Source: Petrimonas sp. | Lineage (GTDB): Bacteria; Bacteroidota; Bacteroidia; Bacteroidales; Dysgonomonadaceae | Direction: 5' to 3' | Length of the DNA stretch: 64,000 nucleotides | Assembly (NCBI GenBank): GCA_012839475.1 | Contig: DUNG01000029.1 | Location: forward strand, 26,497 to 90,496 | Shown here: positions 1 to 55,982 of the stretch, piece by piece | Numbering within the stretch: position 1 is the first letter of the stretch | Layout: each line of letters starts with the position of its first letter | Notes under the pieces: model-generated | What the model was told of the DNA's origin: nothing | Database searches by the model: none | What the model saw: only the letters and a program-made list of their open reading frames with translations | Made by a program: the position numbers and the translations under genes

Positions 1-2021
1 TAACCCATATGTCGCAGTACGGCTCGTTGATGAACTCAGTATTAACGTTAGACCCGCTGACCCCGGTGTACTACTCAAGTCCTGACCAGTTCGCACCGAC
101 CATGAAGCAGGCGTACGATGAAGGAAAGATCATCCTACAAGACCCCGATAACGGGCTATATTACGCCACCTCGAAGTATATCACCGACGATAGCGGTAAC
201 CCTCTGTTGCAACGAGACCGCGTGGACTCTGAAAACTCTGGGATAAACCTGCGGGGGATGATCTTTGGTAACCTGAAACCAATTAAAGGGCTCGTGATTA
301 CCTCTCGCTTGGGATATAGGGTAGCGCAGAGCAACTACCACAGTTACAGCACACCCTATTATGCCACTCCGCAAGCGAAAACAGAGAACTACAACATCTC
401 CGCCAATGCTAACACCAGCTTATTTTATCAATTTGAAAATTTCGCGAACTACAACGTCGTCCTCAATCGGCACAACATCACCGGGATGGCCGGTATGTCT
501 TATATCGAGAACAACTCGGATAACGTGTCAACGAGCGCGCAAGGACCCGACATACTAACAGGATACGAACCCAACTTCCGGTACATAAACTACGTGAAAA
601 GCAACGTGGTGGACGGGCAAGAAAAAACGGTGAAGAATCTTGGCAACCTGCCCAGTAAATCAACACAGATATCCTATTTTGGTCGCTTCATCTACACTTT
701 TGACAACCGGTACACCTTTCAAGCGAATTTCCGTGCCGACGCCTTTGACTCGTCAAAGTTGTCGCCAAAGAACAGGTGGGGTTACTTCCCGTCGTTCTCC
801 ACGGGTTGGAACGTGAGTAACGAAAAGTTCTTCACTGAAAACATCAATTTAGATACCTTCTCATTCCTACGGCTCCGCGCATCATGGGGCCTCAACGGTA
901 ATATCAACGTGCTCAATAATTACAGGTACAGCAGTACCATTGCCTACAACAGCTCCTGGTATCAATTTGGTGTTGAGGATCCTGCTCCCTCGTACGGTTC
1001 AAGTCCTTCCGGTTTGCCCAACCCGAACCTCAAATGGGAGACTTCGGAGCAGCTGGACTTTGGAATCGTGATGAGGTTTTTAAAGAACAGGCTTGGCATC
1101 TCCATGGACTACTACGACAAGAAGACCAAAGACCTCCTGGTAAACATCAACCCGGTTCCCGAGATGGGTGTATCAGAAACAACCGTCAACGCGGGATCCG
1201 TTCTTAACCGGGGCTTCGAGCTGGAGGCCTCATGGCATGACCGGGTAGGTGATTTCAGTTACTCCATTACCGGTAACTTCTCCACCCTTCATAACGAGGT
1301 CACCTACCTCGATCCCACCATTTCAAGATTGGAAGGGGCTGTTGGCGGGGTGGATGGCACGAACAACCCCATCCGTACTGCCTTTGAGGTGGGATATCCC
1401 ATATGGTATTTCAGGGGCTACCAGTTTGAGGGCGTGAACCCAGAAACGGGTGAAGCCATCCTCACGGATGTAAACGGTGATAACGTAATATCTGATGGTG
1501 ACATGACCTACCTCGGTAAAGCAATCCCCGATTACACGTACGGGATAAACATCAACCTTGCATACAAGAACATCGACTTTACCCTGTTTGGCGCGGGCGT
1601 GGGTGGAAATGATATTTTCACCGTTCTATACCGTGCCGACACCCCCATGCGTAACTCGCTTAGGTATTACTACGAAAATGCCTGGACGCCCAACAATAAG
1701 AACGCGTCTATGCCTGATCCCAAAGCGGTCGTGTCTGACTGGCATTTCTGGGGCTCTTCGGCCTCTATGTTCAATGGAGCCTATTTCAAGATTAAGCAGC
1801 TCCAGCTTGGTTACACCATTCCGACAGAAATCACCAAAAAAGCCCTGATCAACAAGCTAAGGCTTTACGTATCGCTCGAAGACTTCTTCACCTTTACCTC
1901 CTATCCAGGGGTTGACCCGGAAACGGCCACGGTAAGTACTGCTCCTCAACGTGCAGGTTTCGATAACGGTACCTACCCACAGGCAAAGAAGGCAACGTTT
2001 GGAGTTAACATCACATTTTAA
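1..2021 (+). CDS. SusC/RagA-family TonB-dependent outer-membrane transporter, C-terminal ~670 aa (5' end outside the window)
   Basis: The reading frame is open to the window edge. The sequence is Y/N/G-rich and beta-barrel-like, and ends in the terminal aromatic ...FGVNITF typical of TonB-dependent barrels. A SusD-family gene follows. Confidence 0.9.
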   Translation, partial: THMSQYGSLMNSVLTLDPLTPVYYSSPDQFAPTMKQAYDEGKIILQDPDNGLYYATSKYITDDSGNPLLQRDRVDSENSGINLRGMIFGNLKPIKGLVITSRLGYRVAQSNYHSYSTPYYATPQAKTENYNISANANTSLFYQFENFANYNVVLNRHNITGMAGMSYIENNSDNVSTSAQGPDILTGYEPNFRYINYVKSNVVDGQEKTVKNLGNLPSKSTQISYFGRFIYTFDNRYTFQANFRADAFDSSKLSPKNRWGYFPSFSTGWNVSNEKFFTENINLDTFSFLRLRASWGLNGNINVLNNYRYSSTIAYNSSWYQFGVEDPAPSYGSSPSGLPNPNLKWETSEQLDFGIVMRFLKNRLGISMDYYDKKTKDLLVNINPVPEMGVSETTVNAGSVLNRGFELEASWHDRVGDFSYSITGNFSTLHNEVTYLDPTISRLEGAVGGVDGTNNPIRTAFEVGYPIWYFRGYQFEGVNPETGEAILTDVNGDNVISDGDMTYLGKAIPDYTYGININLAYKNIDFTLFGAGVGGNDIFTVLYRADTPMRNSLRYYYENAWTPNNKNASMPDPKAVVSDWHFWGSSASMFNGAYFKIKQLQLGYTIPTEITKKALINKLRLYVSLEDFFTFTSYPGVDPETATVSTAPQRAGFDNGTYPQAKKATFGVNITF

Positions 2022-2080
2022 ACTAAACAGACTACTCACGTGAAACCGACATGATTAAAATAATCATTACACATACTTGG

Positions 2081-2239
2081 GAACTATTTCGATATGCCAT
2101 ACGAGCAGAGGACAAGTTCACTTGGAATATGCCGTGGCGAGAAATAGTCTAACTTCAGTGAACTATTTCGATATGCCATACGAGCAGAGGACAAGTTCAC
2201 TTGGAATATGCCGTGGCGAGAAATAGTCTAACTTTAGTG
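2081..2239 (+). repeat. Tandem direct repeat, 2 x 79 bp (1 mismatch), repeat family R
   Basis: The unit GAACTATTTCGATATGCCATACGAGCAGAGGACAAGTTCACTTGGAATATGCCGTGGCGAGAAATAGTCTAACTT[C/T]AGT occupies 2081-2159 and 2160-2238. Its ends are inverted (ACTATTTC / GAAATAGT). Confidence 0.97.
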
Positions 2240-2262
2240 AATGATTGTTTTCAACATCCAAG

Positions 2263-2297
2263 GTTCCATACACAGAAACAAATAAATAAATAATCGT
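2263..2297 (+). promoter_or_regulatory. Conserved pre-start module (instance 1, upstream of susD-like gene)
   Basis: GTTCCATACACAGAAACAAATAAATAAATAATCGT followed by ATG. The motif starts 35 nt before the ATG. Confidence 0.5.
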
Positions 2298-3977
2298 ATG
2301 AAAAAATATATATTACCCCTTTTCATCATTACCGCGGTACTCTTTTCCGCGTGTAACGAGGATCTACTAGACATTCCCCAGAAGGGAGTGATCAGTATCG
2401 ATTCATTTTACATCACCGATGAGGATGCCGAATCTGCCTTGGTCAATTTATATGCCAACTTTATCACCAACGTTGGAGGCAATGACGGTATTTACGTCCC
2501 CTACAACATCATCTTCAATTACTGCGCAGATAACGTGCTGGCAGCCGGCGAGTTTTACGGGGACAACGATCAATTCGCCAGTATCAACGAATTTCGATTT
2601 GACTCGCAAAGCTCCGTGGTATATCAATTATACAGGCGATTATACTTTGTTATCTATCATGCCAACCTGGTTATCGACAACTTCGAGTACGGTGAAAGCG
2701 CGATAAAGGATCGCTGTATTTCCGAGGCGAGGGTAATCAGGGCATGGTGCCATATGACGGCTGCCCTTGCATGGGGCACTCCTCCCCTGGTGGATCACCT
2801 GCTTGCCCCGGAAGACAAACCCACGAACTTTGAAGGCACGCATGAGGAGTTGCTCAAATGGTGTGCGAAAGAGGCTTCGGAGGCAGTTCCATACCTTGAC
2901 GAACGCAAAAGCACAACCGACAAGGATGGAGCGGTAAAGGTCACCAAGGGTTTTGCCTGGACGGTAGAAGGAAAGGCGCTCCTCAACGCGGGCGACTACG
3001 CGGGTGCTAAAACAGCCCTTAAGAAAGTCATCTCCTCGGGTAAATACGCGTTGGTACCCGGTGAGGAGTTTGGGAACCTCTTCCACCTCTCCGGTGACGG
3101 TAACGAAGAGAAGGTCTTTGAACTAAACCTCATAAACAACGCGAGTATCGGTGACTGGGGCGGTAAAATTCAACGCTCAACCTGGATGGAAATGAACCTC
3201 TGGGGATGGCGTTCCTCTCGCCTGGCAGCCTCTCCTACCATGCAGGCCGATCAAGGGTGGGGTGGCCTGGCTATTGAAGAGGGCTTTGCGCACCGTTTCG
3301 CCGAGAACGATGGTGACTCTTACCGTCGTAAAGCGACCATCATCACTTACGAGGAGTTCATTACCGAGCTTGAGTGGCCAAGTGACGATGGCGATATAAA
3401 CAACTTAACCAAAGAGGAGAAGCTAGCCGATCCAAGAAGGGGAATCGTTAATCCCGACGGCCTGTATGGGCAATGCGGATACCTGCAAAGGAAACATATC
3501 GTCATCAAAGAAGACCGTTCAACCAATTGGTACCGCTTCAACAACTTCATCATCACCCGTTACGCCGACGTGTTGTTGATGTACGCGGAAGCCTGCGCCA
3601 AAACGAATGACAACGACGGCCTACAGTACCTTCAGATGGTTCAAGAGCGTGCCGGATCGGCTTACGTAAGCTCTACCCTCACGCTCGAAGACGTTAAAAG
3701 AGAGCGAGACTACGAATTGTGGATGGAAGGGTCGCGATGGGTTGATATGAAACGGTGGGGAGAATTTGAAAAAGCCAAAACAGCCGGGAAACGAATTCCC
3801 TCGCTAAAAGACGCGTTCATCAACGATGATGAGCCCTTGCACAGGGGGTATGTCACCTATTCAGAACCCAATGCAGGTAAGCAGGTTGGATTCCAAGCCG
3901 GGAAACATGAATGGTTCCCCTACCCCTACAACGTGATCTCTATCAATCCCAACCTGGAGCAAAACCCGGGATGGTAA
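2298..3977 (+). CDS. SusD/RagB-family surface glycan-binding lipoprotein
   Basis: Lipoprotein signal (VLFSAC). SusD-like helical N-terminal half and the ...FNNFIITRYADVLLMYAEA... segment typical of SusD proteins. Located downstream of SusC. Confidence 0.9.
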   Translation: MKKYILPLFIITAVLFSACNEDLLDIPQKGVISIDSFYITDEDAESALVNLYANFITNVGGNDGIYVPYNIIFNYCADNVLAAGEFYGDNDQFASINEFRFDSQSSVVYQLYRRLYFVIYHANLVIDNFEYGESAIKDRCISEARVIRAWCHMTAALAWGTPPLVDHLLAPEDKPTNFEGTHEELLKWCAKEASEAVPYLDERKSTTDKDGAVKVTKGFAWTVEGKALLNAGDYAGAKTALKKVISSGKYALVPGEEFGNLFHLSGDGNEEKVFELNLINNASIGDWGGKIQRSTWMEMNLWGWRSSRLAASPTMQADQGWGGLAIEEGFAHRFAENDGDSYRRKATIITYEEFITELEWPSDDGDINNLTKEEKLADPRRGIVNPDGLYGQCGYLQRKHIVIKEDRSTNWYRFNNFIITRYADVLLMYAEACAKTNDNDGLQYLQMVQERAGSAYVSSTLTLEDVKRERDYELWMEGSRWVDMKRWGEFEKAKTAGKRIPSLKDAFINDDEPLHRGYVTYSEPNAGKQVGFQAGKHEWFPYPYNVISINPNLEQNPGW

Positions 3978-4031: not shown

Positions 4032-4064
4032 ATGGAACCTTGGATGATTAATTAATCATCCAAG

Positions 4065-4071
<7 letters not shown>
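4032..4071. repeat. Perfect 40-bp palindrome (potential 18-bp-stem hairpin)
   Basis: ATGGAACCTTGGATGATTAA|TTAATCATCCAAGGTTCCAT, with all 20 pairs checked base by base. The right arm runs into the conserved GTTCCATACAC leader motif. Confidence 0.98.
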
Positions 4072-39268: not shown

Positions 39269-40774
39269 TTACTCTACCCGTTTACCCCACAACGAGCGGC
39301 CATTGCGATCCAACCCGGAAAGCAGAACGGTTTGAACCTGGTTTTCCCAGTCGTGCCCTGTAAAGACGATCACATCCTCCATGGTTTCATCACCAATAGA
39401 CAAGGTAAGTGACTGTTTCGCTTCATCGAAGTGCCAAAAACCATCGTCACCGGCAGTTCCATCTTCAAGTAGTTCCACCATGAACGAGCGGTTCCACTCT
39501 GCCTCGTTTAAACTTCCCTCGCCCCACAATACCTGTCCCGCTTCAAGGCGACGTTCATGCACGGACTCCGCGATCCGGATTAACTCCCATTTTCCGGGAA
39601 TCAGCTCCTTTCCCACCTGATATCTCTCCTCACCGGCAAAGCGTTGCGGCGAGGCGACGGGCCACCCGTCGGGTGTGAAAAACAGCTCTCTCACGTGCAG
39701 CACCATCAGGTGGTTACCCGGCGATAAACGGCCCTGGTGCACCATAAAGTACCTGCCATCGTCCCTGGCCAGCACCCCACAATGTCCTGTACCAGCCCAC
39801 CCGGGATGGTTTGCGAACTTGTAAGGAGCCACTATTACGGGAAAATTGTTGGTGGTATCGCTTAGGTTCTTGCCGAAAAAATCGCGAAAAGGTCCCTCCG
39901 GCTTATCGGATCGCCCAACGCGCACGTTGTAGGTGGTCATCAGCGGATCATACGAAACAAACAGGTAATACTCTTTCCGTTCGGGGTTATAGATGATTTC
40001 GGGCGCTTCCAGGTTATCCTTCCGGTAATTGGCCCGCCTCGCTATTAAATGACCCAGGTCGCCTTTTTCCTTTGTCAAACCGGTTGCGGGGTCAAGCTCC
40101 ACGCAATACAAGCCGCCAAAATAGGAGCCGTAATGCATCCATAGCTTCCCGTTGTCCACATCCTCGATAACACTGGGGTCTATAGCGTTCATCGGGGTAT
40201 CGTTACTAGATTTCACCACCGCCCCCTTTTGTACCCAGGGACCCTCTGGCGAATCGGATTCCGCCAACCCTATCCAAGATGTTTTTTTCCCGAAAGCCGA
40301 TACGCTGAAGTAAAGCCGGTACACGTCGCCCTGCTTCATCACGTAGGGCGCCCAAATGTTGGTGGCCCCTCTTCCCTCGTTACGGGAGCGAACCCACTCG
40401 ACGGCCTCCTCCGGTATCTCGGGGAAGGCCCACCCCACGAACTCCCAGTTAACAAGATCTAGCGACTTTCTTACCTGAATGTACCTAAGGGGCACATTTT
40501 TAGCTTTGGCCTCCTCCCTGTTTTCCGCGAAAATAGCGTCAGTGGAATAGAGGTAGTAATAGTCACCAAATTTTTTAATCGCGGGATCATGCACGTTATA
40601 GGTTCCCCATTCCTTGTAATGCTCCATGGATGAGAGGTGAGTGTAATCGTCGACCCATGGGTTGGTCACCTCCTCAAAAATCGGGTACGGCTGCTTTTGC
40701 TTGCAGGAACACGCTACCAAGGAGAGGACAATGGAAACGAAGAGGCACAGGGGAGAACAAGTGTAATTTTTCAT
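39269..40774 (-). CDS. GH43 endo-alpha-1,5-L-arabinanase-like lipoprotein with C-terminal domain
   Basis: Lipobox LVAC. YNVHDPAIKKFGDYYYLYSTD, NIWAPYVM, NAIDPSV, GSYFGGLY, LEAPEIIY. Confidence 0.8.
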   Translation of the reverse strand: MKNYTCSPLCLFVSIVLSLVACSCKQKQPYPIFEEVTNPWVDDYTHLSSMEHYKEWGTYNVHDPAIKKFGDYYYLYSTDAIFAENREEAKAKNVPLRYIQVRKSLDLVNWEFVGWAFPEIPEEAVEWVRSRNEGRGATNIWAPYVMKQGDVYRLYFSVSAFGKKTSWIGLAESDSPEGPWVQKGAVVKSSNDTPMNAIDPSVIEDVDNGKLWMHYGSYFGGLYCVELDPATGLTKEKGDLGHLIARRANYRKDNLEAPEIIYNPERKEYYLFVSYDPLMTTYNVRVGRSDKPEGPFRDFFGKNLSDTTNNFPVIVAPYKFANHPGWAGTGHCGVLARDDGRYFMVHQGRLSPGNHLMVLHVRELFFTPDGWPVASPQRFAGEERYQVGKELIPGKWELIRIAESVHERRLEAGQVLWGEGSLNEAEWNRSFMVELLEDGTAGDDGFWHFDEAKQSLTLSIGDETMEDVIVFTGHDWENQVQTVLLSGLDRNGRSLWGKRVE

Positions 40775-40811
40775 ACAATTTTTAACTTTTTTACATTTCA
40801 GTGTATGGAAC
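40775..40811 (-). promoter_or_regulatory. Conserved pre-start module (instance 3, upstream of GH43 39269-40774)
   Basis: The minus strand reads GTTCCATACACTGAAATGTAAAAAAGTTAAAAATTGT followed by ATG. The motif starts 37 nt before the ATG. Confidence 0.5.
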
Positions 40812-40964
40812 TATTTCGTCAAGCCAAACGAGCAGAAGACAAGTTCACTTGGATTATGCCGTGGCGAGAAATAGTCTATTTTAATGAACTATTTCGTCAA
40901 GCCAAACGAGCAGAAGACAAGTTCACTTGGATTATGCCGTGGCGAGAAATAGTCTAACTTTAGT
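40808..40964 (+). repeat. Tandem direct repeat, 78 + 79 bp, repeat family R (second locus)
   Basis: The 71-nt core GAACTATTTCGTCAAGCCAAACGAGCAGAAGACAAGTTCACTTGGATTATGCCGTGGCGAGAAATAGTCT is repeated identically starting at 40808 and 40886. It has 6 mismatches in 71 nt against the 2081 locus. Both arrays end in TAACTTTAGTGAA. Confidence 0.97.
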
Positions 40965-40988
40965 GAACCTTTAATGATTACCTACTGA

Positions 40989-40996
40989 CAAACATA
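40989..40996 (-). promoter_or_regulatory. -7 promoter box TATGTTTG (TAnnTTTG) for a leftward transcript towards GH43
   Basis: Exact match to the Bacteroidota sigma-A -7 consensus TAnnTTTG on the minus strand. There is no TTTG -33 element; site A occupies that position. Confidence 0.5.
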
Positions 40997-41016
40997 ACAC
41001 TATTTTTTAAAAAAAA

Positions 41017-41048
41017 GGTGGAAAAACGAACACGGAAGGTGGACAAAA
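41017..41048 (-). promoter_or_regulatory. Candidate HTCS (AraC-type) operator, site A: two GGTGGA/TCCACC hexamers 21 bp apart
   Basis: The plus strand reads GGTGGAAAAACGAACACGGAAGGTGGACAAAA. On the minus strand the proximal TCCACC is followed by exactly 20 nt and then TATGTTTG (40996-40989). Confidence 0.45.
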
Positions 41049-55890: not shown

Positions 55891-55982
55891 GCTTTAATGC
55901 TCGCTTCGCTGATATTTGCTCGCCTCAACAAAGCATTGGCAAGCTAAGTCCTGCATTCGGCTTACGCGAAAATTCTACTGAA

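Follow-up and report, generated by a model that had tools for sequence, protein, structure and literature searches.

A palindromic interspersed repeat nested in a leader cassette between susC and susD genes, a probable new MITE/REP-like family of the Dysgonomonadaceae

Results

We analysed a 64,000-nucleotide (nt) stretch (hereafter, the window) of a Petrimonas sp. genome (assembly GCA_012839475.1, contig DUNG01000029.1, positions 26,497 to 90,496; our contig C44 of a 3.39 Mb genome with 49% GC), in which a susC-like and a susD-like gene on the forward strand are separated by a spacer of 276 nt (window positions 2022–2297) that holds two tandem units of a hairpin-forming 79-bp repeat, here called X. 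The genome, which comes from anaerobic digesters, resembles Proteiniphilum and Fermentimonas. Gene calls were crude, being the longest open reading frames (ORFs). The 3′ part of the susC-like TonB-dependent transporter gene (3–2021, from the ORF list; Pfam PF00593, E = 1e-18) ends with the stop codon TAA at 2019–2021, and the susD-like gene occupies 2298–3977 (PF07980, E = 8e-36). A first-pass annotation, made from the sequence alone, had put the gap at 277 nt, one too many, and had held that such gene pairs are normally nearly contiguous, which is the case in this genome: among 36 adjacent susC–susD pairs that could be called, the gaps of the other 35 are mostly 7–30 nt, with two of 60–81 nt (maximum 81). 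Because only 1 of the 36 pairs carries a long spacer with X, the tie of X to susC–susD is incidental and a specific link between them was rejected. Sampled words of window positions 1300–3200 were recovered at 99% in each of 20 independent digester metagenome runs, and the X array is therefore no assembly artefact.

Within the spacer, GTGAAA at 2040–2045 is putatively what is left of the original start of susD, which reads ATGAAA in relatives (judging from 12 orthologous junctions), and a cassette composed of a hairpin module (Y) and a pre-start leader (Z) begins immediately 3′ of it. The left half of Y (2046–2080) comprises a 5′ arm, CCGACATGATTAAAATAATCATT, and the left part of the loop, ACACATACTTGG; the right half, GAATGATTGTTTTCAACATCCAA (2239–2261), was delimited by a genome census and pairs with 2048–2068 in the predicted fold. 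Leader Z (2262–2297) consists of GGTTCCATACAC and an A/T-rich stretch of 24 nt that ends in AATCGT, and is predicted to be single-stranded. The small hairpin and the pre-start GTTCCATACAC module, reported earlier as separate elements of the gap, are both present (as the palindrome ATGATTAAAATAATCAT at 2051–2067, within the 5′ arm of Y, and at 2262–2297, respectively), although they proved to be parts of the Y–Z cassette that holds the array. Between the halves of Y lie X unit 1 (2081–2159; a 67-nt hairpin plus TAACTTCAGT linker, confirmed by folding and by an 89.9-bit covariance-model match) and X unit 2 (2160–2238; 90.9 bits), both of which were delimited by Tandem Repeats Finder (TRF; 2081–2241, period 79, 2.0 copies, 98% matches, score 315). 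As first described, the two 79-bp units differ at a single base (TAACTTCAGT versus TAACTTTAGT, read directly). In the predicted fold of the whole gap (2022–2300; −67.6 kcal/mol, z = −3.9), a single rod forms that the Y arms close, and Z stays unpaired.

The second array reported in the window, at 40808–40964, lies upstream of a GH43 glycoside hydrolase gene on the reverse strand (39269–40774; PF04616 and PF16369), whose own leader Z (40775–40807, reverse strand, assigned from sequence and census) meets the array at GTTC/CATACAC. Its two units, of 78 nt (40808–40885; 95.9 bits) and 79 nt (40886–40964; 97.7 bits), are on the forward strand, antisense to GH43 (TRF: 40808–40968, period 78, 2.1 copies, score 301). 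The two arrays are 91–92% identical, which fits the earlier count of 65 of 71 core positions, and both terminate in the same flank, TAACTTTAGTGAA. A remnant of the 3′ arm of Y (GGTAATCATTAAAGGTTC in the GH43 sense; 40965–40981, reverse strand, from sequence) follows the array, so that the GH43 units are placed at a Y/Z junction; complete Y–X(−)–Z arrangements are found elsewhere in the genome, at C30:125042, C56:25829 and C52:76678.

X is a multicopy family. BLAST returned 52 copies in the genome and an iterated nhmmer profile 83 units. The latter are grouped in 63 arrays: 48 consist of a single unit and 13 of two, while one array has four units and another has five. Nearly all arrays are intergenic, and several are situated at contig ends. 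Each unit is an imperfect hairpin of ~67 nt followed by a linker of ~12 nt, with predicted folding energies of about −20 to −23 kcal/mol per window unit (z-scores −2.2 to −3.8). The outer stem, CTATTTC...GAAATAG (7–9 bp), forms terminal inverted repeats, outside which the linker lies, and covaries between three subfamilies; the four units of the two window arrays belong to subfamily A (CTATTTC...GAAATAG, linker TCTAACTTTAGT). A degenerate, divergent unit of the same superfamily, resembling subfamily C, is also present in the window (55904–55975, reverse strand; 31.8 bits, E = 6e-6), just 3′ of the stop codon of a reverse-strand gene. Subfamilies B and C sit inside larger mosaic repeats with common modules (for example, GGGGACACATCCTGCG, AAAAGAAAAGCTGTTTGA and TTCTTTTCTTTTAGC..AAGCAG..GATGGGTC), as at C16:15300–17700, C16:100800–101700, C20:2400–3400 and C59:143000–143700; several contigs terminate inside these mosaics, so the assembly is broken there.

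The paired structure of X is conserved through sequence change. RNAalifold predicted 16 pairs from 45 distinct units, 12 of them with compensatory changes, and in an extended 21-pair structure 94.6% of cells are paired, with compensatory double changes in 15 of the 21 pairs; the covariation score was reached by none of 500 shuffles, and slid controls were only 35–48% paired. Across subfamilies, the bases of an asymmetric internal loop (5′ side TAAG, 3′ side GAG) are nearly invariant. Since the stems covary while the internal-loop bases stay constant, these patterns suggest a folded single strand, of DNA or RNA, that may be recognized by a protein.

We next describe how X is distributed, using a covariance model built from the copies of this genome; copy numbers in the large searches, where filters were stricter, are lower bounds. 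Of 24 congeners sampled, 22 carry X (1–117 copies) and two have none. Across the Dysgonomonadaceae, 57 of the 121 genomes had matches, and these were spread over 14 of the 21 genera; among other Bacteroidales, only 8 of ~198 sampled genomes had matches, with 1–3 copies each on sensitive re-search. A pattern scan of public genomes named Proteiniphilum (including P. acetatigenes DSM 18083), Fermentimonas and metagenome-assembled genomes of Dysgonomonadaceae as hosts. The first-pass annotation had allowed that the repeat might be an unremarkable one, confined to two loci and without conservation in relatives; it is instead found genome-wide and family-wide. Divergent X-like hairpins with unchanged loop bases also occur outside the Dysgonomonadaceae, at L179 (G294:C6:158902–158974) and in seven other Bacteroidales families. 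One such hairpin lies just upstream of an excisionase-type helix-turn-helix gene, a hint that it may be carried on an integrative element.

[quoted passage not shown] Rfam gave no match to X in the window at the gathering threshold, only a spurious 14-bit SECIS_5 match in 2000–2300 at E ≤ 10, and none to the divergent subfamilies; the families without a match include FopS (RF04319), GibS, STAXI and Bacteroidales-1. With no Rfam match for the window, the gap or the divergent subfamilies, and with FopS excluded by both architecture and model, identity with a known RNA family was rejected. A plasmid or phage origin was rejected for want of any match in plasmid or phage collections, and a literature search returned no description of the family. 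An integron attC site was likewise considered and dismissed. The hairpin base of attC is formed by R″ (RYYYAAC) and R′ (GTTRRRY) core sites; direct reading of X finds GTCTAAC in the linker, but the hairpin base is CTATTTC/GAAATAG and the strand has no complementary GTTAGAC. Two further elements were met elsewhere in the genome: a clear FopS homologue at C20:3162–3235 (L188:763–836), which scores 77.7 bits where the gathering threshold is 56 and is separated by ~270 nt from units of subfamily B/C, and a Y1 (IS200/IS605-type, PF01797) transposase fragment at C9:9770–10042, broken by a stop codon and with no X nearby.

The first-pass annotation had attributed the two arrays to insertion of an element at each site, with local duplication or homogenization, and comparison with orthologous loci bears this out. 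SusD orthologues of 84–89% identity were found in 12 congeners. Their susC–susD junction is ~20 nt in 10 of the 12 (TAATTCAAYACATTAT../ATGAAAAAA), and the remaining two have different hairpin-plus-leader cassettes without X. All six GH43 orthologues examined have an upstream region without X or Z. The presence of X thus differs at orthologous sites, both window arrays being missing from all 12 and all 6 orthologous loci, respectively, and comparison of these loci indicates that both arrays are recent lineage-specific insertions. Upstream of GH43, TCCACC direct repeats and a TAnnTTTG −7 box (40989–41048) are conserved in the six congeners (L169–L174); there, the start codon follows these regulator sites and the −7 box at ~40 nt, but here the X/Z insertion has moved them to a distance of ~200 nt.

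X inserts at GAAC/GAAT sites, adding exact multiples of 79 bp; two contexts recur, and both orientations are found. The first context is the Y loop, which reads ..CCCTTGG/GAATGATT.. when empty and ..CTTGG/GAAC-X-X-AGT/GAATGATT when filled; X occupies this position at the susC–susD locus, at C57:209794, C52:175784 and C52:232390, and in relatives. At the Y/Z junction X has the opposite orientation (AAAGGTTC/X(−)/CATACAC), as upstream of GH43 and at six other loci. The 3′ flank of X arrays in relatives is GAA[C/T/A] in 37 of 51 cases. Among co-directional pairs, X has the same orientation as the gene in about 11–12 cases and the opposite in 6, a bias that is not significant. Units are 92% identical within arrays and 83% between them, and for 22 of 31 units the nearest relative is in the same array, which supports local duplication or homogenization. 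Some arrays unite divergent units (78–85% identity), one of them as an a-a-b-b-a mosaic, and adjacent insertion therefore occurs too.

Transcription was assessed from assembled metatranscriptome (Logan) contigs, which carry no strand or end information and break in repeats. At the susC–susD locus, one 463-nt RNA contig extends without mismatch from position 1693, in susC, to 2155, in X unit 1, at the depth of susC, and the RNA depths of susC and susD are similar. Upstream of GH43, RNA contigs at the depth of that gene (90x and 25x) cross Z and 50 nt of the proximal X unit, reaching 40857; RNA depth on the regulator side is 3–5x. X is transcribed as part of mRNAs, in both orientations. It was rejected as an intrinsic terminator, given that no U-tract follows the hairpin in either orientation and that the susC RNA contig enters unit 1, and also as a portable promoter: by sequence reading, the similarity of the linker TAACTTTAG to TAnnTTTG, the −7 box of Bacteroidetes, stops short of the final G, and the nearest TTG is 25 nt upstream rather than 19–21.

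Cassettes of the kind that holds X are themselves widespread. Leader Z occurs at ~78 sites in the genome, as (G)GTTCCATACAC followed by ~24 A/T-rich nt with AATCGT at the end, and for 57 of these copies an ORF of 80 amino acids or more starts 25 ± 2 nt downstream (47 of the 57 ORFs begin with MK), the genes being both secreted and cytoplasmic in product. Hairpin Y is uninterrupted at no fewer than 14 other gene starts. Either Y or Y2 often stands 5′ of Z, beginning straight after a copy of ATGAAA, and Z–Y2–Z–Y–Z chains occur. At the susD orthologue of genome G021, the cassette has TCATATGAAA on both flanks; together with the ATGAAA copies, this makes it appear that Y–Z cassettes insert at start codons and regenerate them.

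Several further features of these cassettes were recorded. They end in AATCGTATGAAA (for example, at C30:356246, C47:5869 and C41:10930, and at the susD orthologue in G021 and G137), and a relic mini-ORF may be left behind, such as ATGAAACCGACATGA (MKPT and a stop). Within the window, a perfect 40-bp palindrome at 4032–4071, ATGGAACCTTGGATGATTAATTAATCATCCAAGGTTCCAT, runs straight into ACACCGAAATG...AATCGTATG, where an esterase gene starts, and represents a third hairpin variant joined to leader Z. The 12-nt loop of Y has opposite orientations at two loci whose arms are identical (CCAAGGGTGTTT versus AAACACCCTTGG, at C19:24094 and C47:5869), which suggests inversion across the arms or hairpin-based copying.

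Discussion

X is most probably a new MITE/REP-like family of palindromic interspersed repeats (REP, repetitive extragenic palindrome) of the Dysgonomonadaceae that has been duplicated locally and is tolerated in the leaders of mRNAs. As is expected of a MITE, it is small (79 bp, where the usual bound is ~300 bp), non-coding and dispersed in many copies (83 units in 63 arrays). We infer an order of events, a target preference and a selfish nature for the element, the first of these from comparison between loci. A cassette of ~100 nt, hairpin Y plus leader Z, would have inserted exactly at the susD start codon, regenerating ATGAAA; a single X unit would then have entered a GAAY site in the Y loop, and head-to-tail duplication would have yielded the two near-identical units. 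The GH43 array would stem from a separate insertion at a Y/Z junction (GTTC/CATACAC), in the opposite orientation. Propagation would be driven by a protein that recognizes the folded X strand. X has no recognizable promoter or terminator and is simply transcribed with the surrounding mRNA; its rod would leave Z unpaired so that expression continues, and any effect of X on mRNA stability or 5′ ends would be a by-product.

Similar elements are known in other bacteria. Like X, the pneumococcal BOX (boxA–(boxB)n–boxC), RUP and SPRITE repeats are small, non-coding, intergenic and multicopy, and BOX shares with X an internal module repeated head-to-tail in variable number and stable structures in transcripts. 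Different families of this group cluster and insert into one another (PMC10969869), a nesting to which that of X inside Y can be likened. X is nevertheless unrelated to BOX in sequence, its unit forms a complete hairpin on its own, of 67 nt and with covarying stems, its flanking modules (the Y arms) are found only at some loci, and the host phylum is different. REPs, together with the BIMEs (bacterial interspersed mosaic elements) and REPINs (REP doublets forming hairpins) that they build, are also high-copy extragenic palindromes that are co-transcribed, form arrays, show compensatory change and vary greatly in copy number between related species (PMC3733652); a REP, however, is an imperfect palindrome of 20–40 nt, one end of which carries a GTAG (or CGTC) tag (PMC3733652), whereas X has 67 nt, no conserved GTAG/CGTC in its consensus, arrays of direct rather than alternating repeats and no co-occurring RAYT (REP-associated tyrosine transposase).

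Within the Bacteroidales, the BrickBuilt MITE of Porphyromonas gingivalis (PMC4596501) is likewise an intergenic, spacer-free tandem repeat with limited hosts and tens of copies. BrickBuilt consists of 23-nt units between leader and tail subunits with small inverted-repeat ends and has promoter activity (PMC4596501), in contrast to X, in which the unit is a 79-bp hairpin, no promoter is detectable and neither a leader nor a tail is fixed. [quoted passage not shown] (2008) given in PMC10969869, measures 178–235 bp and has clear terminal inverted repeats and direct repeats; compared with what that summary covers, X differs in that its termini and target duplication are ambiguous, and the X/Y/Z modules lie between susC and susD, with both genes still expressed at similar depth. 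FopS and GibS of Bacteroides (Rfam RF04319; PMC11697453) form a multicopy non-coding family of the Bacteroidales linked to the expression of polysaccharide utilization loci (PULs), as does X, but FopS is an independent transcript of ~65–70 nt with a single-stranded seed and a terminator (PMC11697453), whereas X has no match to the FopS model and is embedded in mRNAs.

Several observations weigh against X being a MITE/REP-like repeat without function of its own. The unique flank just distal of the GH43 array has an RNA depth of at most 2.6x, no more than 3% of that of GH43, which hints at an abundant GH43 mRNA with its 5′ end in or at the array and at a role of X in forming or protecting 5′ ends, although contig depth is a poor proxy for 5′ ends and this placement is suggestive only. 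Imperfect pairs in X show a mild excess of G·U over A·C (33:18 in this genome, 36:23 in relatives), a strand asymmetry not predicted for a purely double-stranded-DNA parasite, with counts that are too weak, and copies too non-independent, to decide between RNA and DNA. The strong covariation and invariant loop bases would also fit a functional RNA. As for mobility, GAA(C/T) at both borders of X may be a 3–4-bp target duplication or just the first bases of the unit; no gene of the Y1 (PF01797) or Y2/IS91 (PF04986) type, the two transposase families searched, tracks X copy number; and the genome matches included no longer element with X ends that could be a related autonomous IS.

Some of these observations would favour a cis-acting RNA element under selection, a stable hairpin domain of leaders and intercistronic regions. 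It would protect mRNA ends, direct processing or shield the unstructured leader Z from the sequence upstream, possibly by binding an RNA-binding protein of its own, and its usefulness would make it spread. The covarying stems, conserved internal-loop bases and G·U excess, the transcription of X at both window loci, its frequent position next to Z, and a gap that folds as a rod (−67.6 kcal/mol, z = −3.9) with Z free are all as expected of such an element, and the highly expressed GH43 gene, with two units upstream, shows a collapse in RNA depth distal of the array that is compatible with a hairpin-capped 5′ end. We nevertheless think this rather unlikely: X lies in either orientation to the gene (about 11–12 same and 6 opposite, with the two window loci themselves opposite), both window insertions are missing from every orthologue examined, copy number ranges from 0 to 117 among congeners, only 1 of the 36 susC–susD pairs is affected, and the depth collapse is read from contigs that locate 5′ ends poorly. 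Much less probable still is that X, as a set of trans-acting small RNAs, regulates PUL genes in the manner of FopS and GibS, an idea to which we give almost no credence. X is transcribed, multicopy and near PUL genes, FopS-type regulation is known in the Bacteroidales (PMC11697453) and a FopS homologue is present elsewhere in the genome. Yet X matches neither the FopS nor the GibS model, has no architecture of single-stranded seed plus terminator, no correctly spaced TAnnTTTG promoter and no U-tract by sequence reading, and lies inside mRNAs in both orientations; head-to-tail arrays without transcription signals of their own also fit independent small-RNA genes poorly.

X might alternatively be of the REP/REPIN type, or a miniature derivative of an HUH-transposase element (IS200/IS605 RAYT or IS91), that moved as single-stranded DNA and formed arrays by re-insertion at its own terminal GAAC. 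A hairpin with conserved unpaired bases is typical of folded single-strand substrates, X insertions adjoin GAAC/GAAT and are exact multiples of 79 bp, mosaic arrays exist, and the genome contains a Y1_Tnp pseudogene fragment. IS91 elements move by a rolling-circle mechanism with a Y2 HUH transposase and insert next to a GAAC/CAAG tetranucleotide without duplication, and the GAAC borders of X raised the possibility of such an origin. The distribution of the transposases makes this very improbable. Complete genomes with 45–84 copies of X lack Y1_Tnp and a genome with none has an intact one, so that Y1 presence is unrelated to copy number; the Y1 fragment found here is broken and not flanked by X units, and a REP/RAYT identity was rejected on these grounds. 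Y2_Tnp (PF04986) is absent here and was present in only 3 of 17 other genomes searched, without relation to X copy number, and its absence from most X-rich genomes led us to discard an IS91-like origin. X also lacks the GTAG/CGTC tag of REPs and has 67 nt where REPs have 20–40 (PMC3733652). A new MITE/REP-like family remains our preferred explanation of X.

More unusual in their biology than X itself are the Y–Z cassettes, which seem to home to start codons. We tentatively raise the possibility, which we consider on balance improbable, that X, Y/Y2 and Z form a modular system of mobile 5′-leader cassettes that home to start codons, with a regulatory pay-off. In such a system, Y–Z would insert after ATGAAA, regenerate it and leave a four-codon relic ORF, thereby equipping genes with a standard leader for initiation, unstructured and placed 25 nt from the start, and X hairpins would plug into the fixed GAAY sites of the cassettes. 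A protein reading the X internal loop or the Y arms would propagate the cassettes, and for ~60 genes, PUL genes among them, this would tune both translation and the stability of mRNA 5′ ends. If so, Y–Z/X would be a start-codon-targeting mobile element with a regulatory benefit, not plain junk.

The X family accounts for the anomalous 276-nt susC–susD spacer and for many contig breaks in Proteiniphilum and Fermentimonas assemblies, and with its covariance model about 80 loci can be masked in each genome. The Bacteroidales, in which few such elements have been described, gain in X a repeat family that is well structured and restricted to a lineage. X also provides a case of a repeat nested in a repeat at the start codon of a PUL gene, with expression kept. 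The covarying stems and invariant loop bases point to a possible protein partner of X, and if X hairpins or Y–Z cassettes set mRNA 5′ ends or translation, PUL regulation in these abundant bacteria of anaerobic digesters would gain a new layer.

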